DNA of 64,000 nucleotides from Candidatus Latescibacterota bacterium (GTDB lineage Bacteria > Latescibacterota > UBA2968), in contig OZ244028.1 of the NCBI GenBank assembly GCA_965214925.1, positions 3,592,205-3,656,204 on the forward strand. Direction: 5' to 3'. Position 1 is the stretch's first letter. The number at the start of each line of letters is the position of its first letter. Under the pieces are notes generated by a model that did no database searches, was not told the origin of the DNA, and saw only the letters and a list, made by a program, of their open reading frames with translations. Below, one piece after another: positions 14,773-31,904 of the stretch. The position numbers were made by a program, and so were the translations under genes.

Positions 14773-14775
14773 GGT

Positions 14776-14806
14776 AGCTTTCAGTGGTCAGTGGTCAGCA
14801 CCCGCC
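14776..14806. repeat. Dispersed element, copy A: AGCTTTCAG-TGGTCAG-TGGTCAG-CACCCGCC
   Basis: Sits immediately 5' of the yceD start codon and over the ndk stop. Related copies at 25557-25585, 29614-29639 and 31874-31904. Confidence 0.6.
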
Positions 14807-15228
14807 CGAAGCGAGACGCCAGAATCCCGCGTTCCAAAAAAGAAGGCCACTTCTTTGCCCGCGTTTTCCGGTGAATCTGAGGCGTGTACCGCGTTGTTTT
14901 GAATGTCGGTGGCAAAGTCTTTGCGAATAGTGCCTTCCGCGGCGTCTGCGGGATTGGTGCTCCCAATGGTTTGGCGCAAAAACGCGACGGCATTGTCTCG
15001 GTCGAGCACCATGGGCACACAGGGGCCAGAGGTCATAAAATCGAGTAGGTCATGGTAAAAAGGCCGTTGGCGATGCACTGCATAGAACTCGGCGGCCTGT
15101 TCTCGCGTGAGGCGCACCATTCTCAGGTCTGCCACCCGAAAATTTTTTTCTTCCAGACGGCGAATGATTTCACCAATTGCGTTTTGTGCAACTGCATCGG
15201 GTTTGATGATGAGCAAGGTGCGTTCCAT
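14788..15228 (-). CDS. ndk: Nucleoside diphosphate kinase
   Basis: LLIIKPDAV, active-site region NAVHASDS and terminal EVAFFF. Confidence 0.9.
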   Translation of the reverse strand: MERTLLIIKPDAVAQNAIGEIIRRLEEKNFRVADLRMVRLTREQAAEFYAVHRQRPFYHDLLDFMTSGPCVPMVLDRDNAVAFLRQTIGSTNPADAAEGTIRKDFATDIQNNAVHASDSPENAGKEVAFFFGTRDSGVSLRAGADH

Positions 15229-15356
15229 GCATGAACTCTGTGTGGGGAAATGCGGTTCGCGTCGGCTTGAGAATAGACAAGTTAGGATTTGATCTTTTTT
15301 TTGTCAACCCCATTTTTAGAAGCGTTCGCGCCTGTAATTTGTTCAAAAGAAAGGGG

Positions 15357-15385
15357 TTGACACGAGTCCAATTGGAGACTTTAAT
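15357..15385 (+). promoter_or_regulatory. Putative sigma70-type promoter of the ether-lipid operon
   Basis: TTGACA (15357-15362), 17-bp spacer, TTTAAT (15380-15385), about 50 bp upstream of the FAR start. Confidence 0.3.
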
Positions 15386-15435
15386 TAGGGCACTTTTGGA
15401 AAGTGATTTTTTTTCTGCATTTTGGGGTTTTTGTT

Positions 15436-17052
15436 ATGAGCGTCGTTATTCCATTTTTGAATCACAAAGTTCTTTTTGTCACGGGTGCAACGGGTTTTTT
15501 GGGCAAGGGATTGGTGGAAAAGATCCTTCGCCATGTGCCGGATATTGGACGCATCTATCTCATGGTGCGCCCCCGAAGCCGAGGGGCAGGCAAGCCCGTG
15601 AGCACCGAAGACCGCCTTCAACGAGAGGTTTTGCAATCCAATGCCTTTGCGCGATTGCGCGCGGAACTCGGAGATCGATTTGACGCTGTGATGCGCGAAA
15701 AAGTCACGGCTGTGCCGAGTGACTTGACAGAAGACCGCCTCGGCATGGACGCCGAGACTTATGCGCGGTTGACCCGCGAAGTCGATATCGTGATCAACAG
15801 CGCAGCCACTGTGGTTTTTGACGAACCTCTGGATCTGGCCCTGGCTCAGAATACCCTCGGTACCATGCGCGTGGTCGAATTTGCCAAAGCGTGTCGCAAT
15901 GCCGTGCTCGTACACGTTTCAACGGCTTATGTCAATGGGCGGCAAAAGGGCGTGATTTCTGAAGACGCGCCCGTGCCCGATCACACTGTGGCACAGCAGA
16001 TGGGAGAGGGGCGCGCGCCCGATTACCATCTGGATTCGGAGATCGAAAGCATCCTGGCATATCGCCGCGAAGTCGAGGAGGCGTCGCGAAGCCCCGATCG
16101 ATTTGCCGAATTTACGCGTTTGCTCAACCGAAAAGACCGGGGCAAGCGCGTGACCGCGCATCGGCGGGAACACCAGATGGAGGCGTTGCGCCAACGCTGG
16201 ATCAGAGAGCGGATGGTGGCGCGCGGCACGCAGCGCGGGCGCGCGTTGGGCTGGCACGACAGTTATTCTTTTACCAAAGCCATGGGCGAGCAGATGATCG
16301 CCAAGACCCGGGGCAAGTTGCCGACTGTGATCGTCCGACCGTCAATTATCGAGAGCAGTTTGTCCGATCCCGAGCCCGGATGGATCGAGGGGCTCAAGGT
16401 GGCCGACCCGCTCATTGTACACTATGGCAAGGGGCGTTTGATGGATTTCCCCGCGCGCCCAGAAGCGATTTTAGACATTATTCCCGTGGATATAATTATC
16501 AATGCGATCATCGGTGTTTTGCCTTCCATCCATGCGGGGTCCAATTTGAAGGTTTATCACGTGACAACAGGTGCAAATAATCCGGTCACCATGGGCGAGG
16601 TCGCCCACTATGTGTACGAGTATTTTGTGAAAAACCCCATGCGAGATCGCAATGGCAACCCCATTGCGGTGGCGAAGTGGTCCTATCCGACGTTGTCCCA
16701 ATTCCGTCGAAAGTTGCGTTATCAATACCAGTTGCCACTCAAAATGATGCAGTGGGCCCTGAACCGGGTGCCACTGGTCGATGTTTCAAAACAGAAACGA
16801 CATTTGTCAATATTAGACGCCACATTGGAAAATACGCTGTCATTAACCAACATTTACGCGTCTTATATTTCTTTGGATTGCGTGTTTCAAAACGACCATA
16901 TCAATCGGCTGTTTGACGGCATGGATGCAGAAGATAAAGCAATTTTCAATTGCGATGTCTCGCGCATCAATTGGCCCGCATACATCAAAGAGATCCACGT
17001 TCCCGGCTTGCAACGCCACGTGCTCAAAACAGATGTGGCGAAAGGAAGTTGA
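15436..17052 (+). CDS. Fatty acyl-CoA reductase (alcohol-forming, FAR1-like; NAD_binding_4 plus FAR_C domains)
   Basis: TGATGFLGKGLVEKIL Rossmann motif, YVNG active-site region and RPSIIESSLSDPEPGWIEG, which mirrors eukaryotic FAR RPSIV..EPFPGWID. Confidence 0.8.
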   Translation: MSVVIPFLNHKVLFVTGATGFLGKGLVEKILRHVPDIGRIYLMVRPRSRGAGKPVSTEDRLQREVLQSNAFARLRAELGDRFDAVMREKVTAVPSDLTEDRLGMDAETYARLTREVDIVINSAATVVFDEPLDLALAQNTLGTMRVVEFAKACRNAVLVHVSTAYVNGRQKGVISEDAPVPDHTVAQQMGEGRAPDYHLDSEIESILAYRREVEEASRSPDRFAEFTRLLNRKDRGKRVTAHRREHQMEALRQRWIRERMVARGTQRGRALGWHDSYSFTKAMGEQMIAKTRGKLPTVIVRPSIIESSLSDPEPGWIEGLKVADPLIVHYGKGRLMDFPARPEAILDIIPVDIIINAIIGVLPSIHAGSNLKVYHVTTGANNPVTMGEVAHYVYEYFVKNPMRDRNGNPIAVAKWSYPTLSQFRRKLRYQYQLPLKMMQWALNRVPLVDVSKQKRHLSILDATLENTLSLTNIYASYISLDCVFQNDHINRLFDGMDAEDKAIFNCDVSRINWPAYIKEIHVPGLQRHVLKTDVAKGS

Positions 17053-17057
17053 TCGCT

Positions 17058-19004
17058 ATGCCGACACGCGACAAATTAGACCCCCGTCCCTTGCACGAAA
17101 CCCTGCTCGACAATACAGAGCAGATGTTGGCGATTTACGACCAATCGGTTCAGTACCTGCTCGAAGCCGTGCGACACGATGGCTATTTTGACGGTCTCGC
17201 GCCCGACGCGCTCGTGTGGCCGAAAAACCAGAGCGGGGCGATGGATCTCGAGGCGTTGCAATTTCGCGCTCAGATCGTGGATGCGATTTTTCGCGGCCTG
17301 CCCGAGATTCGCAATGTGCGTTTGTACGAGGCATATCGCCCGTTTGCGGATCTGCTTCCGCAGTATCACGCGGGCAGCCGGATGTATTTGCAACTCCGAC
17401 GGCAATTTGTCGCGCGCGGCAGAGGTGATGCCCGAGATTTTTTGAAATTGTATCAATCCCTGTATTTGAAGGCACTGGCCGGGGGCGAGTTGCACGCGCC
17501 CGAAGCCGTGGAAGAGGCCCTGGCGCAAGTGCATATTACGCAGGTGCCAATGTCGCATGCGCGGGCTGTTGCCGAGGCCCTTGGCGATGTTGCGGTGGAT
17601 GACGATGCGCACTGGGCAGAGGGGTATGTTTGCGAAATAGATGGCGCGAGCGTGGAAGGCGCGTTGCGCGATTTGTTGCAAGACGTGGCACAGCGCACGC
17701 TCAATCTGATTGCCGCGGGCGGTTTGCTGGCAACGCGATACAACTATCTGACAAATTTTGGCTGGTTTGGCGTCTCGGTGTGGAAGGTCATTGTCGATGC
17801 CGAGGTGGCCCTGGCGCAGGTGCGCGGTGCCTGCCCGGAGTCCGTTCTGAATTTGATCGATGAGGATGTGGCGCGCATGAAGGCATTGTTGATCGAATTT
17901 TTGCACGCCCATCAGGAGGATCCCACAAAGCTGCGCTCCAAGTTGTATTGGTATGGGCAAGAGTACAGCTATTTGACGCGGGATATGATCGATCTCTCCG
18001 TTAAACTCCTCGGCGATGTCAACGCGCAGATCAATCGCCTAGGACAAAAAATTTCGCGCTTGGAAATGCCCCCCTTGCTCGCGGATACCGCGCGCGGGCG
18101 ATTTTTGGAATATCCCAATGTGGGACGCAGGGGGCAATTTTCACGCGCGCAGCGGGGAATGCGTTTTGCCAGATGGATGGCGTTGTCGCTCAGGGTGGGA
18201 TGGAAAAAAAAGAAATTGTTGCACAAAGAAGCCGATCCCATTCGCCGCCGCGAAGCCGGGTGGCGCGCATGGCTCAATTGGGGGCGTCGCACGCTGGATA
18301 TTTTCGATATTCGGGTGCGCGTTTATATCGATCCCCATTTTGAAGCCGTTGCGCGGGATTTGAGGGCCGACAGAGAAAACCGCCGCCTTCTTTTTTTGCC
18401 AACGCATCAGAGTTTGTTTGACCATCCGGTTTTGTACGAAGTCTTGCAGTCCAAAGCATTTTGGGATGCGATGGGCTGGGAAAGGCCCGAACCGTGTGTG
18501 ATTTTGGCGCGCACGGGACTGGCGCGTTCGGGCATCAAAATTGGGTCGAAACAGATCACGCAATTTGGAATGTCGTCTGAGGCTTTTGACCACATTCTGG
18601 AAAATGTCGATGGCTATGTCATGCTCGAGCGGTCCCGTACCGCAGGGCATACGACGCAACGCGTGGCGCGGGCATTGACAGAGCGACCAGGCGTTATTTA
18701 TCCCATGGCGACGACCGCGGCGTTTGCCATTCAGCAATTTCCGCTTCAGCATGGGGTATTTGCACAATTGCCCCAGGATGTGGTGATTGTGCCGATTGCC
18801 TATCGCGGCCTTCACGCGCTGTGGCCCAAATGCCCAAAGGGAAATATCAATATCAACCCGGGGCAGGTCGATGTGTGGGTCTCGCCGCCCATGCTGGGCG
18901 AGACCGCGCTGCTGCCCAAAAGGCGGTCGTTGCGGATTCAGTCCGAAGCTGCCGCGCTATTTCAAGCCGTGCATATTGCCACATTGCTGAATCCGGAAGA
19001 ATGA
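17058..19004 (+). CDS. GNPAT/PlsB-like glycerol-phosphate/DHAP O-acyltransferase (HxxxxD acyltransferase with a ~420-aa N-terminal extension)
   Basis: LFLPTHQSLFDHPVLYEVL is acyltransferase block I (HX4D), close to mammalian DHAPAT LPTHRSYIDFL. ATG at 17058 lies 5 nt after the FAR stop. Confidence 0.65.
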   Translation: MPTRDKLDPRPLHETLLDNTEQMLAIYDQSVQYLLEAVRHDGYFDGLAPDALVWPKNQSGAMDLEALQFRAQIVDAIFRGLPEIRNVRLYEAYRPFADLLPQYHAGSRMYLQLRRQFVARGRGDARDFLKLYQSLYLKALAGGELHAPEAVEEALAQVHITQVPMSHARAVAEALGDVAVDDDAHWAEGYVCEIDGASVEGALRDLLQDVAQRTLNLIAAGGLLATRYNYLTNFGWFGVSVWKVIVDAEVALAQVRGACPESVLNLIDEDVARMKALLIEFLHAHQEDPTKLRSKLYWYGQEYSYLTRDMIDLSVKLLGDVNAQINRLGQKISRLEMPPLLADTARGRFLEYPNVGRRGQFSRAQRGMRFARWMALSLRVGWKKKKLLHKEADPIRRREAGWRAWLNWGRRTLDIFDIRVRVYIDPHFEAVARDLRADRENRRLLFLPTHQSLFDHPVLYEVLQSKAFWDAMGWERPEPCVILARTGLARSGIKIGSKQITQFGMSSEAFDHILENVDGYVMLERSRTAGHTTQRVARALTERPGVIYPMATTAAFAIQQFPLQHGVFAQLPQDVVIVPIAYRGLHALWPKCPKGNININPGQVDVWVSPPMLGETALLPKRRSLRIQSEAAALFQAVHIATLLNPEE

Positions 19005-19130
19005 TCGGAATCGCGCGCTGTGCGTGATGGCTCTGTCCAATAGCTTTAGCCGATGATTTCTCGTTGTGCGATTTTGATTTATGCACACCCCTCATTTAGA
19101 CACCTCGGCGTTTTATCCGTGAGGAACGCA

Positions 19131-20981
19131 ATGGATGAATTAACAGTTGTCGCATTTTTGCTGGCGTTGTGCTTGGTGCTGGTATTTCTGCTCGTTAGCA
19201 GGCGTCGCGCGTTTGCTCGTGAAGGCGATCTTTCAGATGGGTCAGACGGCGAGCGATTTGCACATAAGTGGGGGTATGCAGATACGCGATTTGAATTTGG
19301 CGATGACGGAAACGTGTGGATGACGGGCGCGCGGTACCTATTGTGTGGCTATCAGATGCCTCATTTTTTGCCCTTTGTCGAAGAGATGCTCGATCTGCCC
19401 ATCCGCCCTGAAGACATGGGACAAGAGGTCGAACACCGCGACTTGCCCAAACCCATAGCAAACGATGGATTTTTGACTGCGGTGCGCGAGGAGCTCGGGG
19501 ACGACCGAGTTTCTCAAGAAGATATCGAGCGTTTGGTGCATAGCCACGGTCAGTTGAGCGTGGATGAGGTATATCAAATTTTGTACCATCGCCCCCCCGA
19601 ACGCTTGGTGGATGTGGTGGTGTTTCCAGAGGGCGAGACAGATATTCAGAAAATCGTTCAGCTCGCAAACGACCACAACGCAGTGCTGGTGCCCTATGGC
19701 GGAGGGACGAATGTGAGTGGCGCGCTCGCCATTCCCACATCGGAAACGCGCATGGTCGCGTCGGTAGATATGCGGCGCATGAATCGCGTGGTGTGGTTGG
19801 ATGAAGAAAATTTCCAAGCATGTGTGGAAGCGGGCATGTCGGGCGTGCAATTGGAGAACGCCCTGAACGCGCGGGGGTACACCGCGGGACACGATCCAGA
19901 CAGCTTGGAGTTTTCGACCCTGGGCGGTTGGATTTCGACCCACGCCAGCGGCATGAAAAAGAATCGGTATGGCAATATTGAAGATATTGTGCTAGAAGCC
20001 ACGTTGGTGACGCCAACAGGTGAGGTCCAGACGCGACATGCAACGCCGCGCAATTCAACGGGTGTGCAACCCCGGTCATTTTTGTTTGGCAGCGAGGGCA
20101 ATTTGGGGATCATTACCCGGGCGATTATCAAGGTCCACAAACAACCCCGAGTGCAGCAATTTGGCTCGCTGGTCTTTCCGTCATTTGAACAGGGGGTGGA
20201 TTACCTCAAGGCACTGAGGCAGACCGGACAGATTCCGGCGAGTATTCGGCTGCTGAACAACACGGAATTTCGTTTTGGACAGGCATTGAAACCCGCGGCA
20301 AAAGGCGTCGCGAAGATCGAGCAAGAGATTCAGCGTTTCTTCCTGTTCAAGCTCAAGGGCTTTGATCTGAAGCAGGTGGTGGCGTGTACGATTGTGATGG
20401 AAGGAACAAAAGACGAGGTCAGGCAACAGGTAAAGACGATTTTCCGTTTGGCGAAAAAGTACGGCGGTATTTCGGGCGGGGCGAGCAATGGCAAGCGGGG
20501 GTATATGCTGACGTTTGGCATTGCGTATATCCGCGACTTTTTCAGTCAGTTTCACATTTTGGGCGAAACATTTGAAACCTCTGTGCCGTGGACACATGTC
20601 CACGAGGTCATCGGCGCGGTGAAAAAGAAGTTGTTTGCTTTGTGTGAAAAATGCGGGATACCGGGCAAGCCCTATTTGGCCTATCGCGTGACGCAGACCT
20701 ATCACACGGGCGTGTGCATTTATTTTACCATGGGCTTTTGCGGACAAGGGCTTGAAGATGCCGTTGGCGTTTTTCAAAAAATTGAGCGCGCGTTGCGCCA
20801 AGAGATCTTAAACCAGGGCGGCTCTTTGTCGCACCATCACGGCGTGGGCAAACTCCGCAGGGGATTCTTGCCGCAAATTCAAAGTGAAAACAGCATCGCG
20901 GTCTTGCGGCAGATGAAAAGGGCAATGGATCCAAACAATGTCTTTGCCATTGGCAACGGCGCGTTTGGAAGTGAAAGCTGA
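19131..20981 (+). CDS. Alkyldihydroxyacetonephosphate synthase (AGPS, FAD-linked oxidase) with an N-terminal transmembrane helix
   Basis: FAD-binding PCMH-type blocks (VVFPEGETDIQKIV, PYGGGTNVSG, GGWISTHASG) and C-terminal HHHGVGK. Start MDELTVVAFLL at 19131 follows a GAGGAA ribosome-binding site. Confidence 0.8.
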   Translation: MDELTVVAFLLALCLVLVFLLVSRRRAFAREGDLSDGSDGERFAHKWGYADTRFEFGDDGNVWMTGARYLLCGYQMPHFLPFVEEMLDLPIRPEDMGQEVEHRDLPKPIANDGFLTAVREELGDDRVSQEDIERLVHSHGQLSVDEVYQILYHRPPERLVDVVVFPEGETDIQKIVQLANDHNAVLVPYGGGTNVSGALAIPTSETRMVASVDMRRMNRVVWLDEENFQACVEAGMSGVQLENALNARGYTAGHDPDSLEFSTLGGWISTHASGMKKNRYGNIEDIVLEATLVTPTGEVQTRHATPRNSTGVQPRSFLFGSEGNLGIITRAIIKVHKQPRVQQFGSLVFPSFEQGVDYLKALRQTGQIPASIRLLNNTEFRFGQALKPAAKGVAKIEQEIQRFFLFKLKGFDLKQVVACTIVMEGTKDEVRQQVKTIFRLAKKYGGISGGASNGKRGYMLTFGIAYIRDFFSQFHILGETFETSVPWTHVHEVIGAVKKKLFALCEKCGIPGKPYLAYRVTQTYHTGVCIYFTMGFCGQGLEDAVGVFQKIERALRQEILNQGGSLSHHHGVGKLRRGFLPQIQSENSIAVLRQMKRAMDPNNVFAIGNGAFGSES

Positions 20982-21004
20982 CCGCGCGAGGGACGTTTGA
21001 CGCC

Positions 21005-21538
21005 ATGCGGGAAACGACCAATGCGATGAAGGTGCGGGAACTCATGCGGCATCTCGGCGCGGAGGCGAGAGGCGAAGGCCGTATTTACCTCGTCGGTGGG
21101 AGTTCCGCGGTGCTGCTGGGCTGGCGGATGACCACCGTGGATGTCGATCTCAAGATCGACCCAGAACCCGTCGGTGTCTTTGATGCGATTGCACGCGCCA
21201 AAAATATCTTGAACATAAATGTCGAACTGGCGGCTCCCGACGACTTCATCCCCGCCCTTCCCAACTGGCGCGAGCGCAGCGCGTTCATCGCCCGGTACGG
21301 ACAGATCGATTTTTTCCACTACGACTTCTACGCGCAAGCACTCGCGAAGATCGAGCGCGGCCATGAACAGGATCTGCGCGATGTCCAAGCGATGCACCGG
21401 GAACGATTGATTGAACCGACGCGTCTGACCGCGCTTTTCAGTGCCATAGAGCCGACTTTGGTGCGCTATCCCGCGATTGATGCCGCGTACTTCCACGAGA
21501 AGGTGCAAAAAGCGGTGATCGCGATGGGAAAACAATGA
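21005..21538 (+). CDS. Nucleotidyltransferase-fold protein (Pol-beta superfamily, minimal-NTase-like)
   Basis: VGGSSAV...VDVDL fits the hG[GS]-x(9-13)-DxD NTase signature. ATGA overlap with the next gene. Confidence 0.5.
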   Translation: MRETTNAMKVRELMRHLGAEARGEGRIYLVGGSSAVLLGWRMTTVDVDLKIDPEPVGVFDAIARAKNILNINVELAAPDDFIPALPNWRERSAFIARYGQIDFFHYDFYAQALAKIERGHEQDLRDVQAMHRERLIEPTRLTALFSAIEPTLVRYPAIDAAYFHEKVQKAVIAMGKQ

Positions 21539-22137
21539 CCAAAGTACCTGAAAATCTGCCCGGCGCGGATCTCGTTGCGTCGGGCATCGAAGCCTTGCAG
21601 CGCGGCGAGACCACGGTTGAGGCCTTGCTCGTCGCCATCGGTGCGCCGCGTTTGCGCGCGGCCGGACTGGAAATTCCCCACGCGCCGGGATTGCCCGACC
21701 AGCCAGAACTCGCCCTCTATACGGCCCTCGGTGCCATGTATCCCCGAGATACGCACTCGCGCTACAATGGTCTTATTCGCCGCCTCGTCAGCTTTGAGCG
21801 CGCACTCGAGCACTTGGTCGCACGGGGTGAGTCGCGCGCTTTGGACGCAACGGCTGACGAATTTCGTTTAACAGACGATCACCAGGAACCCCAACTGAAG
21901 AGGAACAACGACCTGACAGACTATCGGGACCGCATCACTATCGCACCGGGTAAACGCGGCGGAAAGCCTTGCATCCGCAACATGCGAATCACGGTTTACG
22001 ATGTGCTGGAATGGCTGGCTTCCGGCATGAGCGAAACCGAGATTCTGGCGGATTATCCGGAACTGACCCAAGAGGACATCCGAGCCTGCTTGGCTTTCGC
22101 CGCTGATCGAGAACGCCAACTGGTTGCACTGTCTTGA
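21535..22137 (+). CDS. DUF433 domain protein (antitoxin-like C-terminal domain) with an unidentified ~120-aa N-terminal region
   Basis: C-terminus ITIAPGKRGGKPCIRNMRITVYDVLEWLASGMSETEILADYPELTQEDIRACLAFA matches DUF433. Confidence 0.5.
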   Translation: MTKVPENLPGADLVASGIEALQRGETTVEALLVAIGAPRLRAAGLEIPHAPGLPDQPELALYTALGAMYPRDTHSRYNGLIRRLVSFERALEHLVARGESRALDATADEFRLTDDHQEPQLKRNNDLTDYRDRITIAPGKRGGKPCIRNMRITVYDVLEWLASGMSETEILADYPELTQEDIRACLAFAADRERQLVALS

Positions 22138-22441
22138 AACTGCTACTGGATCAAAATCTGTCATTGCTTATCCGTATTCAACTCAGGTACGGCTCGTTGG
22201 TTTGGATCACGCCGATGATCTGGATGTCTGGAACTATGCTAAAGATCAAGGCTTTGTCATCGTTAGCAAAGATGCGGATTTCTCTGAATTCAGCTTGATC
22301 TATGGTCATCCGCCTAAGGTCGTCTGGCTGAGGTGCGGTAACAAGCCCAACTGGTATGTGTTGAACCTGCTACTCAATCACCGAAATAGAATCAGTGACT
22401 TTATCCGTAATAGAGAAACCGGTTGTCTTGAGATGTACTGA
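22134..22441 (+). pseudogene. DUF5615-family (PIN-like) toxin candidate, disrupted by a -1 frameshift near 22150-22175
   Basis: Frame 3 from TTG 22134 gives MKLLLDQNLS, the DUF5615 N-terminal consensus. The rest of the domain (VGLDHADDLDVWNYAKDQGFVIVSKDADF...VVWLRCGN) is in frame 2. Confidence 0.5.
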
Positions 22442-22528
22442 GGTGTGGACTTAAGGACATTTTGAGAAAAATAAAGAGATAACGGAATCAACCATGCAAA
22501 CTGAACTTTTCATTATTGACTTATACCT

Positions 22529-25365: not shown

Positions 25366-25556
25366 CACCCTCCATACTTAAGGAAAGCCTATATTTTTTT
25401 TCATACCCGCCTGCCAACAATGTGGTGAGAAATATTTGACCACTGCTGCCGCAAAAGAGATTGAGCACCACACCGATTCAAACACGGATAAAGTCTCTGG
25501 ATAAATCTCATCGCCCTTTTTGAACTCATCTCATTATGAGGTGGGTTTTCTTTTTT

Positions 25557-25585
25557 AGCTATTGGCTATCAGCTTTCAGCCCGTC
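25557..25585. repeat. Dispersed element, copy D: AGCTATT-GGCTATCAG-CTTTCAG-CCCGTC
   Basis: Sequence similarity to copies at 14776, 29614 and 31874. Confidence 0.5.
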
Positions 25586-25793
25586 TCTCAAACCCTCTGG
25601 ATTCCGGCTTTCATCACCACAGACTTTTCACCTGAATGACGCGATTGCTGTCCCTTGTTCATCTCTGTTCATCCGTGGTTGCGTCTTACCTCTCGCGCCT
25701 GCCCCTGACGGCCCTGCCTACTGCCAGACAGTGCATTTGGCTTTTTTGTTTTCGGGCGGGCACAGGGGCCGCGCCTCTACCCTCGTGTCTTTC

Positions 25794-25823
25794 TGCACTT
25801 TGCACTTTGCACTTTGCACTTTG
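25794..25823. repeat. Microsatellite (TGCACTT / CACTTTG), about 4.3 tandem copies
   Basis: ctgcactttgcactttgcactttgcactttg read directly. It sits inside a ~380-bp CT-rich non-coding block (25540-25930) that also contains the AATCCGCG motifs. Confidence 0.85.
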
Positions 25824-25954
25824 TCTGACCTTTCGCTTTTCATCCGCGTTCATCTGCATTTATCAGTGGTTGCTTTTCGCTTTTCATCCGCGCAATCCGC
25901 GTCATCTGCTTAATCCGTGATCCGCCTTTTATCTTTCGCGTCTTACCTCTCTAT

Positions 25955-26969
25955 GTCAACCCATTGGACAATCATTGCAAATCCCGTTTCGGGACGGGGC
26001 CGTGCAAAACGCATGGGGGAGTTGGTCGCGGATTTATTGCACAATCGAGGTGTAGGTGCTGACCTGATGGTGTCGGAGGCACCGGGCGAGTGTGAACGCC
26101 TCGCGCGAAAAGCATTGGCGCGGGGCGTGCGACAGGTTGCAGCGTGTGGCGGGGATGGCACAGTCCATGAAGTGGTCAACGGCCTCGCAAATTCAGACGC
26201 TGTTCTAGGGATTGTGCCCTGTGGCCGAGGGAATGATTTGGCGCGCGCATTGGATCTGCCCAAAGATGTGAACCGCGTGGTCAATACGCTGGTGCATGGC
26301 GCGGATCGCGCGATTGATCTGGGAAAAATGAACTGCTGTCGCAATGGGACACCGCTTGGCGATCGGTTTTTTGCGACCATTGCGAGTTTGGGATTCGACA
26401 CCGCAGTCGCACAAAGGACGCGGTCTCAGTCACCTCGCTCTCGAGCTTTGGGATGGGGCGGAACCGCATCTTATGGACTGGCGATTTTGCAAACGCTAGT
26501 GGGATATCGGTCTCCGATGGTGCGCTTGAGAGGAGATTTTGGTATTTTTGAAGGGCGTATTCTGCTGGTTGCAACGGCAAACGCGCCGTTTTATGGGAGC
26601 GGAATAAAAATTGCCCCTCACGCCGTGGTCGACGACGGAATGCTGGACGTGTGCATTGTGGCAGATGTGCCGCGCCGGACGGTTTTGCGACTCTTTTCAA
26701 GCGTGTATTCCGGCGCACACGTCGACCACCCTGCGGTGCATATCGCGCGAACCAAAACCTTGCAGATTGAAGCGGTGGATACCTGCGATAGCCGTTCAGC
26801 CGATGATCCCATGTGGGTATTTGCCGATGGCGAACCCATGTGTGAGATTCCTGCAAAAATCGAGGTCGTTCCCAACGCGCTGACTGTGAAAACAATGCGA
26901 ATGTACGACGCGAGACGCAAGAGGCGAGAGGCCCCCAAAACCCCTGCCTGTGCGCCGATGAACTGCTGA
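25955..26969 (+). CDS. Lipid kinase, diacylglycerol-kinase catalytic-domain family (YegS/BmrU-like)
   Basis: ANPVSGRG, ACGGDGTVHEV and GRGNDLAR blocks. The start could be 25917 or 25955. The stop TGA lies inside repeat copy 4. Confidence 0.75.
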
Positions 26970-26984
26970 CGCAGTTGTACCCCG
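26959..26984. repeat. Fourth copy of the 30-bp palindromic element (variant TGAACTGCTGACGCAGTTGTACCCCG)
   Basis: 24/25 identity to the core of the copies at 4255-4549. The G->A variant creates the TGA stop of the lipid kinase gene. Confidence 0.75.
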
Positions 26985-27030
26985 CCGCGTCAATGCGTCA
27001 ATGCTTCTATTCATAAAAGGGAGGTTTGAG

Positions 27031-27705
27031 ATGATTCAGATGGCGGGTATTCAAAAGTGGTATTCCTCGCGCTTTATCAGAACGGTTGTCTTGCAGGGCA
27101 TTGATCTAAAGGTTGCATCTGGGGAGTTTGTCTCCATTATGGGGCCTTCTGGGTCGGGCAAATCCACGTTGTTGCACATTATGGGCATGCTGGATTCCTC
27201 AAACAAAGGCGAATACTTTTTTGATGGCAAAGCCGTGCATAAGATGCGCGAACGCCAGCGATCAGATTGTCACAAGGACAATATCGGCTTTGTGTTTCAG
27301 AGCTACCATCTGATTGACGAACTGACCGTGTACGGAAACATCGAAACACCTTTGTTGTACAAAAAGGTGAAGGGGGATGAACGCAAGGATCGGGTGAATG
27401 CCATGCTGGACGAGTTTGATCTGACGCAGAAGAGAGACTTGTTTCCCCACCAATTGTCGGGCGGCGAACAGCAGCGCGTGGGCATCGCGCGCGCGGTGGT
27501 GATCGAACCGCGCTTGATTTTGGCTGACGAACCCACGGGCAACTTAAATTCAACACAGGGCGAGCAGGTGATGAATCTGTTCACGCAGTTGCATGGCGAA
27601 GGTACAACCATTGTGCAGGTGACGCATTCGGAAAAATGGGCGGGCTATGGCAAACGCATTGTGCATCTGCTCGATGGGGAAGTGGTGAAGGATGAAGCGG
27701 TGTGA
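27031..27705 (+). CDS. ABC transporter ATP-binding protein (LolD/MacB-type), with no adjacent permease gene
   Basis: GPSGSGKST Walker [15 protein letters not shown] signature and [10 protein letters not shown] Walker B. AAGGGAGG ribosome-binding site. Confidence 0.85.
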
Positions 27706-28250
27706 ATCGGTGAATGCTTCGCGTGGATGAGGTCAGGTGATCGGCAGTTGACGGGTGCGGATTTGCCCTTTGGCAACACTGAGAACAGCTCCTCGTGCCA
27801 AACTACTTTGATGCTGGTGGAGGATCGTTAGAAGATACCGATTCACGTTTTGCGGGGTCATATTTCGAAGGCGAAAGATGATCACACTGGGAAGGATAAC
27901 TCGAGTGGCGGCGAGAATATTGGCGAAGTCCAAATCGTGGGTCAGGATGATGCGAGATTCTCGATTTCAAAAATGTCAATATCTGGCAGTCGGTCGAGTT
28001 GTTGGTCACTCAGATAAACCGCCTCGTATCCCTGCGATTTTAAAAAAGAAATGGTTTGAGGCGATATACCCCCATGTCGGCGAGAAAGTTCACAGTACAG
28101 CGGCCTCGAGTGGGTGAACGGATTCCTCAGCGAGCCACGCAGCATATTGAAGGGCCTGTTGAATGTATTCAACTTCGACATACAGCCGGCGCGCAGCACC
28201 CTGATCGCACGCTCAATTTCCATTTGAATCGTTTTCACAAGTTCTCGCGG

Positions 28251-28907
28251 TTATTGAGGTCTTTGCGTATCAAAACGAAAGCGCAATTGCACTTGTAAGT
28301 CGCCCTGGGAATTGGCGGAAACCGTCGCTTTGGGGAGCGTTTTGGATGCGATATTGGCTGCATTTAACGCGCTGGCAAAGCGGTTAAAAAGGAGCGCGCC
28401 CGCAAAGAGAAAACCGCGCGTGCGCGCCCAAGTGGCTTTGCTCCGCAACGCGCGAAATTGTTCGCGCGAAGCCCGCGAGTCCCACTCCCAAAAGTTGTCG
28501 GGGGTTTCTGTCAGGGGGTTGGACGACGCGCCTTCAACGTATTGCAATCGGGCATTGTAGTCGTAGATGCTGTCGAAGGCGGCCAAACGGTCGTAATGGG
28601 AGTTGGGCCTTTTGTCGGGGGTTGCACCCGCGCGCGCCGCAGCATACGCGCGGAAGGTGTTTTCGCGAGTGGCATTGAGTTTTTTGAATGCAAATAATCC
28701 CGTCCAGAACATGCCTTCGGAAAAGAAAAAAAACTTCACGGACTTTCGCCCGCCCGCATACCGTTCGCCCAGGCCGGGCAAAAGAACCGATAAAAACGCG
28801 GCTTTTTGAGGCGATTTCGCTTCTTGGGCGAATGCGGCAACAGGCGCGAGCAAGCATGCTATTGTGCACGCGGTCAGGATACGCAATTTTTGGGCAGATG
28901 GTTTCAT
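28251..28907 (-). CDS. Secreted hypothetical protein, tandem paralogue 1
   Basis: Signal peptide, then the conserved block KSPQKAAFLSVLLPGLGERYAGG shared with the neighbour. Confidence 0.5.
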   Translation of the reverse strand: MKPSAQKLRILTACTIACLLAPVAAFAQEAKSPQKAAFLSVLLPGLGERYAGGRKSVKFFFFSEGMFWTGLFAFKKLNATRENTFRAYAAARAGATPDKRPNSHYDRLAAFDSIYDYNARLQYVEGASSNPLTETPDNFWEWDSRASREQFRALRSKATWARTRGFLFAGALLFNRFASALNAANIASKTLPKATVSANSQGDLQVQLRFRFDTQRPQ

Positions 28908-28923
28908 GTGATTTCTTGGAAAA

Positions 28924-29595
28924 TTAAAACCTCGTTTTCAATTCAACCATTGATCGTCCCTCGATATCGACGGGCGTAATGTCAATCCACAAACTCGGCT
29001 CGGTTTGTTTTTCGAGCGCGTGCGTATAGGCCGAAGCGTGTATGGCACTGGCTATGTGATTGAGCACGGCTAGGCCAGTGACAACCGACGCGCGTTTGAG
29101 GTATTTGTTGCTGTCGTTGCGACGGGTTTCATAATCCTGTCGTCGGGCCGATTGCACGCTCTTGTTATTGGTCGTAAAGTCAGCCGCAACGTCGTCCCAG
29201 CCATGGACAAACTGATGGTATTTGCCAATGAGTTCGTAATACTGTTGCGTGTCTTTGTCTTTGGAGGGCAGCGCGTGGGTTTCGAAATACGGATCGGACT
29301 GGCTTTTGTTCCAGTCCCGCCACGCCCTGTACCGCGCTTCATGCCAATGCCGATCCGCATACGCTCGAAATTCTGCTTTAATGTCATTGCCTTTGCCCCG
29401 CCATAAAACATAAGCGGTCCATGTGAGGGCTTCCGCGCCCATAAATCCGACCGCGCGCAGTTTGGCTCCAGCGTAAAATTCACCCAACCCCGGTACGAGC
29501 AACGAAAGAAAGAAAGCCGTTTTCGGCGATTTTTCCGCGCCAGCCTGCCCGCATACCAGAAGTAAAACAAACGTGCAGATCGCAAATTTTCGCAT
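28924..29595 (-). CDS. Secreted hypothetical protein, tandem paralogue 2; C-terminal ...ELKTRF
   Basis: Signal peptide and KSPKTAFFLSLLVPGLGEFYAGA block. The terminal Phe suggests an outer-membrane beta-barrel-type C-terminus. Confidence 0.5.
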   Translation of the reverse strand: MRKFAICTFVLLLVCGQAGAEKSPKTAFFLSLLVPGLGEFYAGAKLRAVGFMGAEALTWTAYVLWRGKGNDIKAEFRAYADRHWHEARYRAWRDWNKSQSDPYFETHALPSKDKDTQQYYELIGKYHQFVHGWDDVAADFTTNNKSVQSARRQDYETRRNDSNKYLKRASVVTGLAVLNHIASAIHASAYTHALEKQTEPSLWIDITPVDIEGRSMVELKTRF

Positions 29596-29613
29596 GGGAA
29601 ATTTCCCGTGAAT

Positions 29614-29639
29614 GAGCTATCAGTGGTCAGCACACCGCC
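29614..29639. repeat. Dispersed element, copy B: GAGCTATCAG-TGGTCAG-CACACCGCC
   Basis: Lies about 20 nt upstream of the paralogue-2 start codon on the minus strand. Confidence 0.6.
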
Positions 29640-29759
29640 GGAAAGCACGAGACGCGAGCGGGGATGGGTGGCGTTACTCGCTTCGTTGCGTCGTCTGCCC
29701 GCCTTCGGCGAGTGCCCCGTTCTGTAGATGAACTGTAGGTGGCGTTGATTCGCACATTT

Positions 29760-30581
29760 TCAAGACGCGTCGCACAAGGTGCCCAGCAATTCTATCAGAG
29801 GGGCCATTGAGACATCATTGCAGATCACGACATCGTAAACGCGCAGATATTCAGTTCCGTGTTCTTTGACCACTTCATTCAAAAACCCCGCGCGAATGAC
29901 ACAGTCTAAATCGGCATCGTTCACCATCTGTGCATCTTCGATGGTATCTCCCAAAAGCAGGACGCAGCCCCGCGCGCCAATTGCCTGACGCGCTTTATTC
30001 AAACTGTGAATGATCGGCTCGCAAAACCCCGCCACCGCGCCATGGGCATCAAACATCAACTGATTTGCCGTCACTGTCACATTTGGCGTGTGCAATGCCC
30101 GCACCGCTAAGAACTGTGAAATCACATTGCCAATACCCGCGGATAAAATCAACAGGGGAACCGCTCTATCTGCCAACACCTTGAAGTAATCGACAGCATC
30201 GTCGCGCAGATGGATCAAATCTCGGTCTGCCATATCTGCGATCATCCTTTTGGTCAGCCCGTATTGCTGCATCATCGCAAACGCCGCCATCCACCAATCG
30301 CGCATGGCGTTCTGTTTCTCGCGCTCCGAAATCGTCCGCGAGACTTCGATGGGACGATATCGCGCGTACAAGCGATCCATCTCATGGCGATATGCGTCCC
30401 CCAAATACGCCCCGCGTACAATTGCCGAATAAGATGTCGCATCTTTGCCATCTTCGGTTCGCGCCTTTGTCAATGTGCGATCCCAATCGCTGACCACACA
30501 TAGCCGCTCGATTCCCGCGCGTTGAAAATGCGCGATTTTGCGCTGTAAGGTCTCGCGATCCGCGATCAATACCTGTTCCAT
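29760..30581 (-). CDS. HAD-superfamily hydrolase resembling eukaryote-type pyrimidine 5'-nucleotidase (UMPH-1 family)
   Basis: VVSDWDRTLT (DxDxT motif I) and overall ~270-aa length, with Lys/Asp blocks typical of cN-III-like nucleotidases. Confidence 0.5.
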   Translation of the reverse strand: MEQVLIADRETLQRKIAHFQRAGIERLCVVSDWDRTLTKARTEDGKDATSYSAIVRGAYLGDAYRHEMDRLYARYRPIEVSRTISEREKQNAMRDWWMAAFAMMQQYGLTKRMIADMADRDLIHLRDDAVDYFKVLADRAVPLLILSAGIGNVISQFLAVRALHTPNVTVTANQLMFDAHGAVAGFCEPIIHSLNKARQAIGARGCVLLLGDTIEDAQMVNDADLDCVIRAGFLNEVVKEHGTEYLRVYDVVICNDVSMAPLIELLGTLCDAS

Positions 30582-30656
30582 AGCACTGGGATAATCCCGG
30601 TTTGACCCTTCAAAAGATCTACGCGCTCAATAGACATCTGCCACAATTTCATTGCC

Positions 30657-31853
30657 TTACGCCTCAATCCGCTCGCTGATTTCACCCGTCTGTTTGTCCT
30701 TCACAATCCGCTTCAACCGGCCATCGGGCATGCGCTCGGTTTTAAGGGTGACAAACCGCTCGTCCGCTTCTACGGATGTGGTTTCCCGTTTCACTTCGCC
30801 GCCGCGCCAGTCCATCTCGATTGGGACCCACTGCTTTGTTTTTGCCGATTTGTAACACGCATCTATAATGGCATTGACAACATAGCCGTCATACAAGGTC
30901 TCCATTGGCTCGCGCCCTTCATCCCAGGCATTGAACATATCCACAAACATATCTGCATATCCCAATTCCGCCACCTCGTCGCCTACGGGAAAAAGCCATC
31001 CCGTATCTCCTTCGGCTTTCTCGGCCACATATCCCCCTTGTCCCACAGCCGTAAACATGTCAAATCCCGTGCACAACCAGTGGTTGAGCCAGATGGTTCC
31101 TTCGGTACCGGCGACCTCATCCCGCAAATCCATTCCCCCGCGAAATGCCCATCCCACCTCAAACTGTCCCATGGAGCCATTTTCAAACTTGATCAATCCG
31201 ATCCCGTGATCCTCTGCCACTACCGGATGCACGAGTGTATCGGCCCAACACATCGCCTCAACCGGTCGAATATCTTTGCCAATGAAATTGCGGATGATCT
31301 CTACACAATGACATCCCATATCCACGATGGCCCCACCGCCTGCCCGGTTCACATCCCAAAACCAATCGCTGTGCGGGCCGGGGTGAGTCTCGCGCGATCG
31401 CACCCACAATATCCGCCCCAATGCCCCATTTTTCACGGCCGCCAGTGCCTTCAGTGTTTTGGGTGGATACACCAAATCCTCTAAATATCCGCCAAACACG
31501 CCTGCCTTTTCCACGGCATTCAGGATGTGACCTGCCTCGTCAGCCGTGCGCCCCAAGGGCTTGGTACACAATACGGCTTTGCCCGCCTCGGCCGCCAGGG
31601 TCGCGGCTTTGAGGTGCATATCATTGGGCAATCCAATGACCACACCATCGGTCTCGTCGTCTTCAATTGCCACTTTTATATCCGTTGTCCACTTTGGAAT
31701 CTCCCATTCTTCCGCAAACGCCTTGGCTCGCTCTTCTGTGCGCGAATACACCATTTGAACCCGGTCAACACCCCGATGCCTGTGCAATGTCATGGTGTAA
31801 AACATCCCGATCAACCCCGTTCCCAGCATCGTCAACTTATGTCCTTCAGGCAT
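30657..31853 (-). CDS. Gfo/Idh/MocA-family NAD(P)-dependent oxidoreductase
   Basis: N-terminal Rossmann region [10 protein letters not shown] plus EKP-like central motif architecture. AAGGAG ribosome-binding site. Confidence 0.8.
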
Positions 31854-31873
31854 TTTGAACTCCTTTGAAAATA

Positions 31874-31904
31874 GAGCTATCAGCCTTCAGCTTTCAGCCC
31901 CGCC
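31874..31904. repeat. Dispersed element, copy C: GAGCTATCAG-CCTTCAG-CTTTCAG-CCCCGCC
   Basis: Lies immediately upstream of the ribosome-binding site of the Gfo/Idh/MocA gene on the minus strand. Confidence 0.6.

Follow-up and report, generated by a model that had tools for sequence, protein, structure and literature searches.

The dispersed elements of the window (the whole stretch of DNA analyzed, 64,000 nucleotides) are, judged from their sequence, a degenerate-unit variant of the class of oriented heptanucleotide direct repeats, occurring here in a new lineage. Read on the minus strand, each element runs from a G-rich tract through two to three tandem CTGANNN heptads to a terminal ...AG-CT, and the arrays of the window end in ...CTGA(T/A)AG-CT. 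The G-rich tract 5' of the array is a feature of the window's lineage, which stands near Poribacteria; its nearest MAGs carry the label Latescibacterota.

Architecture of the heptad arrays

Four copies had been located in the original prediction, and all four were found at the positions given there. The first, c1 (14807..14776, minus strand), reads GGGCGGGTG-CTGACCA-CTGACCA-CTGAAAG-CT, with the flank GGGCGGGTG at 14807..14799, the heptads at 14798..14778, and the closing CT at 14777..14776. On the same strand, c3 (29639..29614) reads GGCGGTGTG-CTGACCA-CTGATAG-CTC, c4 (31904..31874) reads GGCGGGG-CTGAAAG-CTGAAGG-CTGATAG-CTC, and c2 (25585..25556) reads GACGGG-CTGAAAG-CTGATAG-CCAATAG-CTA, in which CCAATAG is a decayed unit. 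The consensus first quoted for the family holds exactly in c3 and c4, whereas c1 starts with GTAGCTTTCAG and c2 with GGCTATCAG, c2 finishing in CCCGTC. The internal heptad is indeed tandem, as had been proposed, but it is better described on the minus strand as CTGANNN, with an invariant CTGA core that had been overlooked. The count of four was also incomplete, since two short copies had been missed: CTGACAA-CTGA at 43883..43873 (minus strand) and the two-unit array CTGACCCCTGA at 43989-43999 (plus strand), the latter opposite in orientation to the minus-strand genes. These two form an outward-facing arrangement within one spacer; two-unit arrays such as that at 43989-43999 are, taken alone, at about chance level.

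The dispersed family itself is genuine. The pattern CTGANNNCTGANNGC has five matches in the window, all at c1 to c4, against 0.06 on average, and never more than 1, in 100 dinucleotide shuffles. With at most one mismatch, the three-unit pattern has 3 matches in the window (0.14 expected) and AGCTATCAG has 14 (5.25 expected). The doubled unit (NNNTCAG)x2 occurs eight times on the plus strand and once on the minus strand. The period of 7 nt puts the TGA of the core into successive reading frames, so that an array closes two to three sense-strand frames while the antisense strand stays open.

Two natures suggested for the element found no support. As a structured cis-regulatory RNA it lacks a fold signal (z-scores of the copies from -1.1 to +0.5, no better than shuffles for c1, c3, and c4), and an Rfam search of the copies gave zero matches even at E<=5. 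Nor are the copies REP-like palindromes: they are direct repeats in which no self-complementarity was found. No sigma-70-type promoter match overlaps any copy. Outside the array the copies share no similarity, and since similarity stops at the array edge, they do not derive from a longer mobile element.

Gene junctions carrying the copies

In the window the arrays sit at cistron junctions, and the start-directed ones end 1 to 26 nt before the downstream start codon (start codons were confirmed by homology). Three of the four original copies lie in one orientation just 5' of start codons, as first noted, and the overlooked copy at 43883..43873 does likewise. The copies had been assigned to 5' untranslated regions, but c1 and c4 are not simply 5' UTR: the upstream reading frames, ndk and ogt, terminate at a TGA that belongs to the array.

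The last CTGA of c1 lies 8 nt before the GTG (14772..14770) of yceD (DUF177; 14254..14772, minus strand), with no Shine-Dalgarno sequence there. The 172-aa product is the same as database protein P0121, and its N terminus, (M)KIDLRD, agrees with that of relatives, whose start is ATG. The TGA of the second heptad (14790..14788) is the stop codon of ndk (14788..15228, minus strand), leaving a junction of 15 nt. At 146 aa, ndk is 11 to 13 codons longer than in relatives (133 to 135 aa), because an insertion of ~58 nt, comprising the GC-rich tract and the array, shifted the stop into the array. At c4 the TGA of the first heptad (31896..31894) closes the ogt/MGMT open reading frame (6-O-methylguanine DNA methyltransferase; 31894..32499, minus strand), and the last CTGA lies 26 nt before the ATG (31853..31851) of a Gfo/Idh/MocA oxidoreductase gene (30657..31853, minus strand; product identical to database protein P0001, encoded on a 4.70-Mb contig) that has the Shine-Dalgarno sequence AAGGAG at 31865..31860. 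This junction is 40 nt long and, like that of c1, lies inside an apparent operon. Copy c3 falls within a 164-nt spacer between a UMPH-1-type nucleotidase gene and a gene for a 223-aa protein (28924..29595, minus strand; weak DUF5683 match), which had been called a secreted paralogue; its last CTGA is 24 nt before the ATG (29595..29593), and the gene has its own Shine-Dalgarno sequence. Since c3 and c4 are followed by such sequences, the array is not required there as a ribosome-binding site.

The copy at 43873-43883 ends 1 nt before the ATG (43871..43869) of a gene for a BatA_N/VWA protein, whose Pfam BatA match begins at residue 4 of the reading frame translated from the second codon. Two copies are directed away from any start, which argues against a start-linked role. 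One is c2, reversed relative to the flanking plus-strand genes and beginning 8 nt past the stem of a hairpin that resembles a terminator and carries a T run (25522-25548, tail to 25558); the other, at 43989-43999, lies 64 nt past the stop of a PTS-EIIA-like gene, just beyond another hairpin of terminator type, likewise with a T run.

Arrays in related genomes

Related loci were retrieved via the Gfo protein, so the sample is unbiased for the motif; with the window and locus L001 it totals 806 kb. Among arrays of at least three units at period 7, CTGA was the top 4-mer in the related loci (11 arrays, against 1 in 604 kb from other phyla). Arrays of at least two units numbered 75 at period 7 in the related loci, compared with 14 to 35 at most other periods and 63 at period 12. 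In the 806 kb, the array density of intergenic DNA was 13 times that of coding DNA (4.8 versus 0.37 per 10 kb).

The positional and orientation bias that had been put forward as a check was borne out in this sample: 34 intergenic arrays pointed toward starts and 15 toward gene ends (p=0.009), where many of the arrays counted are orthologous sites of related species and p-values overstate independence. In tandem spacers of the relatives taken by themselves, the excess of forward (22) over reverse arrays (14) was not significant (p=0.24). Outward-facing arrays adjoined 23 of 503 starts and 10 of 517 stops in the related loci; convergent intergenic regions carried an array in 1 of 67 cases, and divergent spacers of the chromosomal loci were enriched (13%). 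Forward arrays in the relatives stop 20 to 39 nt short of the start, immediately 5' to the Shine-Dalgarno sequence. Inverted pairs also occur: some Poribacteria spacers, such as L131 8608-8803, have this layout, with arms that pair in the predicted fold (z=-1.9), and in L001 and L123 a reverse unit lies upstream of the forward array.

At a single junction, arrays may be present, absent, expanded, or decayed among close relatives. Locus L203 carries (CTGACAA)3 12 nt upstream of yceD, behind an upstream gene that differs from the window's, and the yceD junctions of three other relatives have no array. The ogt-Gfo junction, with three units in the window, retains remnants of one to two units in L122, L123, and L001, and in L129 and L131 the Gfo orthologue has arrays upstream of it. 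Decayed units are frequent, CCGATAA and CCAATAG among them.

Heptad arrays in phage contigs

In IMG/VR, the intergenic DNA of many tailed-phage contigs, a diverse set, is filled with a GCTGANN unit, usually with four cores; no description of these arrays was found in the literature searched. Like the window arrays, they combine a CTGA core, a period of 7, and a ...CTGA(T/C)AG-CT end, with CTGATAG and CTGAAAG as the commonest units, and they are found at gene boundaries, in many cases immediately 5' of a start codon. Start codons cluster 5 to 15 nt past the last CTGA, mostly without a Shine-Dalgarno sequence, and 32 of 147 forward arrays supply the upstream stop. The core is constant across phyla and in phages of 35% to 72% GC.

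The phage arrays differ in that four cores are preferred, outward-facing inverted pairs are usual, position 7 is nearly always G, and stops and convergent spacers carry arrays as often as starts do; the window copies are single, of two to three units, and start-proximal. Sizes, counted on arrays that the search pattern had not picked out, were not geometrically distributed but peaked at four cores (108 arrays; 48 with three, 10 with five). Where a spacer held both orientations, the order was outward-facing in 52 cases and opposite in 2, the paired arrays mostly lying 4 to 35 nt apart. Reverse arrays began 0 to 20 nt past the upstream stop in 71 of 108 cases. Arrays adjoined 97 of 667 stops and 106 of 683 starts, and tandem, divergent, and convergent spacers carried them equally often (28% of convergent spacers). 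This parity argues against a purely translation-initiation role.

The variable positions of paired arms were not complementary (Watson-Crick pairs at N3-M1 in 18%, against 30% in permutations), and they showed no sense-strand G.U excess. No T run was found after the arrays. Clustering of 1,251 proteins from 115 array-bearing phage loci yielded no candidate binding protein: the clusters were terminase, portal, head, and methyltransferase families only, none common to more than 16 loci.

Comparison with known repeats

The closest parallels are heptanucleotide direct repeats with the unit TAACTGA, known from marine Beggiatoaceae, from Cyanobacteria, and from some Bacteroidetes (MacGregor 2015, PMC4679880). 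They share with the window arrays a tandem 7-nt unit containing CTGA (between two and six copies in a set), stops in the forward frames (in all of them for TAACTGA) with the reverse strand open, the absence of predicted RNA structure, and functionally unrelated downstream genes; 147 of 170 sets are directed toward start codons, 14 overlap an upstream ORF's end, and the downstream genes mostly lack a Shine-Dalgarno sequence (PMC4679880). The window unit, in contrast, is degenerate (CTGACCA, CTGAAAG, CTGAAGG, CTGATAG), whereas in the Beggiatoaceae genome heptamers related to TAACTGA are rarely repeated. The window's lineage also adds the G-rich 5' flank and the ...AG-CT end, most Poribacteria-type arrays lie upstream of a normal Shine-Dalgarno sequence rather than replacing it, and the Poribacteria-related host lineage (sponge-type MAGs) is absent from the reported hosts. 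In Geobacter metallireducens, 15 sites of five tandem MTYCTGA heptads are annotated as putative global regulator sites (PMC2700814). These too are tandem CTGA-core heptads in many genomic copies, but they have five units, belong to another phylum, and are described only in a supplementary alignment.

REP, BIME, and REPIN sequences resemble the arrays in being short, dispersed, intergenic, and often just 3' of stop codons, and REPINs are inverted pairs like those of the phages and Poribacteria. Each REP, however, is itself an imperfect palindrome, made by copying a master sequence and moved by a RAYT transposase, whereas the arrays are direct repeats with free variable positions and no similarity past their edges. 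The cyanobacterial STRR heptanucleotide repeats were reportedly described by Mazel et al. in 1990 as intergenic and tandem. The STRR2 unit, TTGGTCA, is one base per unit away from the TGGTCAG of the window. STRR arrays are longer than those of the window, have fixed units, and come from heterocystous cyanobacteria; they are not known to follow a start-codon rule.

Alternative explanations and a proposed role in translation

That the copies are halves of an intergenic REP-like hairpin, (NNNTCAG)n, spacer, (CTGANNN)n, which terminates, processes, or stabilizes transcripts, we consider unlikely. Single forward arrays in the window would then be half-sites or decayed pairs. The one-way order and close spacing of the phage pairs, the reverse arrays close behind upstream stops, the parity among phage spacer types, the Poribacteria pairs, the reverse units before forward arrays in L001 and L123, and the window spacer 43869-44064, with a reverse pair and then a forward pair, all fit it. 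Yet no inverted partner accompanies c1, c3, or c4, whose folding does not exceed that of shuffles, the paired arms lack complementary variable positions, no T run follows the arrays, and convergent chromosomal spacers, where terminators are expected, are almost array-free. A hairpin, moreover, needs complementarity and not an invariant GCTGA, and leaves the one-way order unexplained. Somewhat more doubtful is a DNA-level array whose heptads, as double-stranded DNA, would each recruit a small dimeric regulator or nucleoid protein. A model is provided by plasmid pSM19035, where the ribbon-helix-helix protein omega binds 7-bp heptad operators. The invariant core with other positions free, the strict period, the discrete four-core phage module, the symmetric phage pairs indifferent to a start or stop neighbor, the enriched divergent spacers, and the Geobacter authors' own annotation (PMC2700814) favor such binding. 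Against it, the phage proteins offered no candidate, the c1 and c4 junctions are odd places for operators, no sigma-70-like promoter overlaps a copy, and a double-stranded site gives no reason why the downstream gene's sense strand should keep carrying stops.

We give a similarly low probability to functionless arrays, either slippage-prone microsatellites or the footprints of very small mobile repeats, tolerated only where sense-strand stops are harmless and associated with gene starts as a by-product. The rapid turnover at shared junctions, the decayed units, and the excess of identical neighbors (24% of adjacent units, 10% expected) agree with this, as does the report, from Mrazek et al. 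(2007) as relayed in PMC4679880, that in most prokaryotic genomes heptanucleotides outnumber all other long simple-sequence repeats. Likewise, the insertion at c1, which lengthened ndk and changed the yceD start to GTG, looks more like tolerated damage than like design. Neutrality does not, however, predict orientation, either direction being harmless in a spacer (34:15 here, 147:12 in the Beggiatoaceae genome [PMC4679880]), one core across phyla and phages, or a nongeometric size peak; the 52:2 pair order needs a directional cause, and the lack of similarity beyond the array speaks against a longer mobile element. Least probable by far are promoter elements or a riboswitch or leader RNA common to three genes. 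Position and orientation 5' of the three genes, and the resemblance of CTGAC to TTGAC of the -35 box, point that way, but the promoter, fold, and Rfam searches do not, c1 and c4 lie within short junctions inside apparent operons, the downstream genes (yceD, the 223-aa protein, and the Gfo oxidoreductase) are unrelated, and a periodic sequence of variable copy number is unlike the build of a promoter or riboswitch.

The explanation we prefer, tentatively and at rather less than even confidence, is that oriented CTGANNN arrays act in mRNA on downstream translation; that they affect initiation or coupling in particular is put forward a little more guardedly. For the TAACTGA repeats, translational control has been proposed. 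A point against is the invariant C before TGA, which is left unaccounted for if only stop codons are needed. In mRNA the array would act not as a folded RNA but as an unstructured leader or intercistronic spacer in which an incoming ribosome is stopped just before the next start. It would occupy the loading site of a 30S subunit or of a single-strand-binding OB-fold protein, and a binder with a 7-nt footprint might be ribosomal protein S1 or a cold-shock-domain protein; one CspB protein binds per heptamer (PMC4679880). The array may in this way set or couple initiation of the downstream gene, sometimes replacing the Shine-Dalgarno sequence, as it may do at yceD and the BatA-like gene.

Copies in the window are short tandem arrays of a 7-nt unit

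The four copies originally predicted were all found at their positions. We read them most clearly on the minus strand, the sense strand of the genes neighboring the copies. On this strand, c1 (14776..14807) reads GGGCGGGTG-CTGACCA-CTGACCA-CTGAAAG-CT, c2 (25556..25585) reads GACGGG-CTGAAAG-CTGATAG-CCAATAG-CTA, c3 (29614..29639) reads GGCGGTGTG-CTGACCA-CTGATAG-CTC, and c4 (31874..31904) reads GGCGGGG-CTGAAAG-CTGAAGG-CTGATAG-CTC. The repeated unit is 7 nt long, with an invariant CTGA followed by three free positions; a G-rich tract lies 5′ of the units, and ...AG-CT closes them. Because c1 to c4 share the CTGA heptads, the G-rich tract, and the AG-CT end, the element is a short tandem 7-nt array. 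The consensus of the original prediction is exact in c3 and c4 but not in c1 and c2.

In the 64-kb window, CTGANNNCTGANNGC matched five times, always within the c1 to c4 loci (shuffle mean, 0.06), and three units with at most one mismatch were found three times versus 0.14 expected. Two short copies had been overlooked: CTGACAA-CTGA at 43883..43873 on the minus strand and CTGACCCCTGA at 43989-43999, which is reversed. A two-unit site at 10859-10869 (CTGAGGGCTGA) was left out; with no ...AG-CT end and a distance of 66 nt to the next start, it may be chance.

When the copies were aligned with 60 to 90 nt of flanking sequence, likeness was confined to the G-rich tract and the heptads; an apparent resemblance between c1 and c3 (GCGTCTCG...) did not extend to the other copies. 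Given this lack of flank similarity, the copies do not come from a longer mobile element. The G-rich tract (GGGCGGG, GGTTGGGG, GGGGTTGGGTGGTTGGG) precedes arrays in the window and in two loci of relatives (L001:6190-6231 and L203:1455-1490), all of one lineage, and is absent from Poribacteria and phage arrays.

Arrays lie at gene junctions and close the sense frames

Copy c1 lies within the 15-nt junction of ndk and yceD, where the TGA of its second heptad is the ndk stop codon and the yceD GTG, which has no Shine-Dalgarno (SD) sequence, follows 8 nt past the last CTGA. Copy c4 lies between the ogt/MGMT gene and the Gfo/Idh/MocA oxidoreductase gene (Gfo): the TGA of its first heptad is the ogt stop, and the array is followed by AAGGAG and then by the Gfo ATG, 26 nt past the last CTGA. 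The yceD and Gfo starts were confirmed by identical database proteins and by homologue N termini. Copy c3 ends 24 nt upstream of the ATG of a 223-aa gene, and the copy at 43883 ends 1 nt upstream of the ATG of a BatA/VWA protein, a start codon supported by a Pfam BatA domain that begins at residue 4. In the window as a whole, four copies thus end 1, 8, 24, and 26 nt upstream of starts, and two are reversed. Copy c2 is reversed relative to its plus-strand neighbors and lies downstream of a strong terminator-like hairpin. Each of the reversed copies (c2 and 43989-43999) directly follows a terminator-like hairpin with a T run (25522-25558 and, on the minus strand, 44020-44050); they lie where the next spacer segment begins, away from start codons. 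The open reading frame adjoining c2 (631 aa; window 23470-25365, plus strand) has an unusual architecture, joining a nucleotidyltransferase (NTP_transf_2/Polbeta) N terminus to a Helicase_C domain.

A period of 7 places successive TGAs in successive frames, so that three units close all three sense frames. The antisense strand is open across the arrays.

Folded RNA, promoter, terminator, and REP readings

The original prediction had suggested a cis-regulatory RNA or a small REP-like family. As structured RNA, both strands of c1 to c4 folded no better than shuffled sequences (z from −1.12 to +0.51). The sole gathering-score Rfam match in the window was tmRNA, and nothing was detected in 10000-45000 even at E ≤ 5; Rfam searches of array-rich phage and Poribacteria loci returned chance-level matches only. 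The tmRNA gene itself is full length (window 62184-62551, plus strand; RF00023, 197 bits). The REP-like reading also failed, as the window copies are direct repeats without self-complementarity; inverted pairs are restricted to relatives and phages and have noncomplementary variable positions. None of 15 promoter-like sites in 14000-32600 (sigma-70 −35/−10 hexamers, 16- to 18-nt spacing) overlaps a copy. Neither a GC-rich hairpin nor a T run, the features of an intrinsic terminator, is present in the arrays themselves; a terminator-like site at 25522-25548, just 5′ of c2, is separate from it, and no T run follows the phage arrays. What stands of the original interpretation is a real, oriented, start-proximal family.

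Arrays in relatives are mostly oriented toward start codons

The nearest GTDB representatives of the Gfo protein (90 to 91% identity) are from metagenome-assembled genomes (MAGs) labeled Candidatus Latescibacterota, with other close matches labeled Gemmatimonadota; the next tier (75 to 77%) is Candidatus Poribacteria. We assembled a group sample of 40 Gfo-centered loci, the further relative locus L001, and the window (806 kb), together with a control of 40 loci from other phyla (604 kb). As the group loci were picked by a protein, they are unbiased for the motif. CTGA arrays of period 7 with at least two units numbered 75 in the group (0.93/10 kb) versus 16 in the controls (0.26/10 kb, about chance), and those with at least three units numbered 11 versus 1. 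CTGA ranks first of all 256 4-mers for arrays of at least three units. Other periods mostly gave 14 to 35 CTGA pairs in the group loci, and period 7 is specific in both relatives and phages. Pairs at period 12 were also raised (63 in the window, L001, and L122 to L161), probably reflecting a coding repeat. The only control array of at least three units is cyanobacterial (L191:17218-17316, a Pleurocapsa MAG; CTGAGTG CTGAGTA CTGA). A second array in that locus faces it inward, the opposite of the phage rule.

Forty-nine of the 75 group arrays fall in the intergenic 12.6% of the sequence, corresponding to 4.8/10 kb versus 0.37/10 kb in coding sequence. The test posed with the original prediction, positional or orientation bias relative to start codons, revealed such a bias as run on the relatives: 34 intergenic arrays point toward a start codon versus 15 toward a gene end (P = 0.009), and outward-facing arrays lie within 45 nt of 23/503 starts versus 10/517 stops (P = 0.02), although these tests overstate independence because many arrays represent one orthologous junction in several species. 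For tandem spacers alone, the forward excess (22 versus 14) is not significant. An array is present in 8% of tandem spacers, in 13% of divergent ones, and in 1 of 67 that are convergent. In the relatives, forward arrays end 20 to 39 nt upstream of the start, just 5′ of the SD, and reverse arrays lie 3 to 20 nt past the preceding stop.

Arrays turn over at fixed junctions

The ndk-yceD junction carries no array in three relatives (L202, L204, and L206), where the ndk stop lies 11 to 13 codons earlier. The window ndk encodes 146 aa versus 133 to 135 aa in relatives (3′ end, 14788-14826), and the window junction contains an insertion of ∼58 nt made up of a GC-rich tract and three heptads. This insertion removed the ancestral ndk stop, so the open reading frame runs on to a stop now inside the array. 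The yceD start is GTG in the window and ATG in the relatives. In a further relative with a 5.48-Mb genome, (CTGACAA)3 lies 12 nt upstream of the yceD ATG (L203:1470-1500); the upstream gene there is different (no ndk), and the yceD start thus carries an array in two contexts.

At the ogt-Gfo junction, three relatives (L122, L123, and L001) carry one- or two-unit remnants (aTGATAGcCGATAACT; CTGATCGCT), whereas the window copy there consists of three units and is accompanied by 22 additional nt; the ogt stop lies inside the array region in all four. Two Poribacteria loci (L129 and L131) have arrays upstream of the Gfo orthologue, and a neighboring 360-aa gene has arrays upstream in about ten species, with unit and number varying. 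The site is therefore conserved and the sequence is not, a pattern that could stem from selection acting on a loose signal or from a mutational process particular to the site.

In a 91%-identical relative, a Gp49/HI1420-type toxin-antitoxin pair lies between ogt and Gfo (L001:2367-2955), replacing the junction that bears c4 in the window. In L127, L142, L152, and L160, the spacer 5′ of the Gfo orthologue (about 9800-9990) holds another dispersed palindromic repeat (tagtcgggaatcggagttccctcctac ... gtaggagcgatctccgaatcgcgac), possibly a MITE-like element of Poribacteria.

Tailed phages carry the same unit in four-core modules

A scan of the viral database IMG/VR with CTGANNNCTGANNNCTGATAGC gave more than 120 stretches among the matches listed, many with 2 to 7 copies; complete control scans with the same letters gave 19 stretches when the period was set to 8 and 67 when it was set to 6. 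Within 1.04 Mb of viral loci we counted 381 arrays of at least three cores, every one at period 7. The phage unit is GCTGANN, and its ending, ...CTGA(T/C)AG-CT, matches the window arrays exactly. Size peaks sharply at four cores (108 arrays, versus 48 with three and 10 with five, counting only arrays outside the search pattern), and a four-core array is present in 77 of 115 viral loci. Array-bearing viral loci range from 35% to 72% GC and contain several different terminase, portal, and head families, indicating diverse tailed phages. Examples among the viral loci (L002 to L121) are L030:1153-1214, L033:8-61, and L015:3305-3381. In one phage (L015, L030, and L033), many of the gene boundaries carry arrays, those behind the terminase and portal genes among them.

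Where both orientations share a spacer, the cores face outward in 52 cases versus inward in 2, usually with a gap of 4 to 35 nt. The arms can pair via GCUGA/UCAGC. The variable positions of paired arms are complementary in 18% of cases versus 30% expected, and there is no sense-strand G·U excess, which speaks against selection for a hairpin. Phage start codons cluster 5 to 15 nt past forward arrays, mostly without an SD, and the upstream stop lies inside 32 of 147 forward arrays. Arrays are as common by stops (97/667) as by starts (106/683), and their frequency does not differ among tandem, divergent, and convergent spacers. Clustering of 1,251 proteins from array-bearing phage loci identified no co-occurring partner: every cluster was a terminase, portal, head, neck, or methyltransferase family, and no family was shared by more than 16 of the 115 loci. 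A blastn comparison of a synthetic array with a collection of cultured phages returned no match, probably an effect of low-complexity filtering. No description of phage-type arrays was found in the literature searched.

Comparison with known repeats

The genome description of Geobacter metallireducens includes 15 sites, each with five MTYCTGA heptads in tandem, which it classes as putative regulator sites (PMC2700814). Oriented heptanucleotide repeats before start codons have been reported once, in 2015: a Beggiatoaceae genome contains 170 sets of two to six TAACTGA direct repeats (CTGATAA in the phase used here), of which 147 are directed toward start codons, the most numerous class terminating 1 nt upstream of the start (PMC4679880). 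Those repeats, also found in Cyanobacteria and a few Bacteroidetes, place stops in all forward frames and leave the reverse strand open, have no predicted RNA structure, and are followed by few SDs; a role in translational control, mediated by S1, cold-shock, or CsrA-type proteins, was put forward, CspB binding one protein per heptamer (PMC4679880).

The window arrays are likewise head-to-tail and 7 nt in period, with two or three units per copy. They are intergenic, and four of the six copies point to a start and end close to it, in line with the bias in the relatives; the three-unit copies have forward stops and an open reverse strand, and c1 and c4 overlap the upstream genes by holding the ndk and ogt stops. 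In contrast, the unit differs: the window has CTGACCA, CTGAAAG, CTGAAGG, and CTGATAG, with only CTGA common to both, whereas CTGATAA itself is present in Poribacteria arrays. With every positional feature shared and the unit sequence not, the window copies represent a variant of the TAACTGA class rather than the same family.

Cyanobacterial STRR sequences form long tandem arrays of the units CCCCAGT, TTGGTCA, or CAACAGT. No identical unit occurs in the window; the nearest pair, TGGTCAG and TGGTCAT, is one base per unit apart. Omega/RHH operators consist of contiguous 7-bp heptads, each bound by one ribbon-helix-helix dimer. The periodicity and the four-core size of the arrays described here are compatible with this arrangement, but no binding protein emerged from the phage-locus clustering.

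Possible mechanisms

The arrays are oriented and junction bound, carry sense-strand stops, lack structure, and show turnover at fixed sites. We infer that they act in mRNA. Our preferred reading, which we put forward tentatively, treats the array as a leader or intercistronic spacer without structure that serves as an all-frame terminator and as a factor-binding site setting or coupling initiation. A ribosome arriving in any frame would be terminated by the array immediately before the next start. The array would span the region from −5 to −45, the stretch in which binding of the 30S platform, of S1, or of a cold-shock-domain protein (7-nt footprint) would be expected, and could thereby set or couple initiation, sometimes without an SD (as for yceD, the BatA-like gene, and many phage genes). 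The C that invariably precedes TGA and the four-core module point to recognition by a factor and not to stop codons alone.

Of all the evidence, the start-stop symmetry of phage arrays weighs most heavily against a purely translational role. Three main rivals were set against the preferred reading. The inverted pairs of phages and Poribacteria favor an intergenic element that forms a hairpin, and each window copy would then be half of it; however, the arms show no covariation, and chromosomal convergent spacers are nearly free of arrays. The same symmetry, together with the module size, is compatible with a heptad operator on double-stranded DNA or a nucleoid-protein array, an explanation against which stands the failure to find a protein. 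Turnover at the junctions is what neutral slippage or a tiny mobile repeat would produce, but such a process leaves the orientation, the core common across phyla, and the size peak unexplained.

A bolder and, in our judgment, rather unlikely reading is that CTGA heptad arrays form one widespread, so far unrecognized class of gene-boundary signal across several phyla and many unrelated tailed phages. They would be read by a conserved single-strand-binding factor (7-nt footprint, S1 or cold-shock-domain type, four units per module) that directs SD-independent initiation or coupling at cistron junctions, with the window copies as small chromosomal instances. The phyla involved would be Poribacteria-related bacteria, Beggiatoaceae, Cyanobacteria, Bacteroidetes, and Geobacter.

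On its own, the window contributes a new lineage and a unit that is degenerate, which isolates the conserved features: CTGA, period 7, and gene-directed polarity. What makes the finding worth following is its link to a phage-wide class of arrays that obeys rules. Use of the same unit by phages at many gene boundaries, in four-core modules of fixed outward polarity, may matter more, as it raises what looked like an oddity of a few uncultured bacteria to a general signal that obeys rules. For annotation, arrays displace stop codons (ndk is 11 to 13 codons longer) and mark true starts. If the arrays act on translation, they would constitute a signal for initiation or coupling that lies outside the Shine-Dalgarno paradigm; if they act on DNA or RNA ends, they would be a new kind of intercistronic punctuation.
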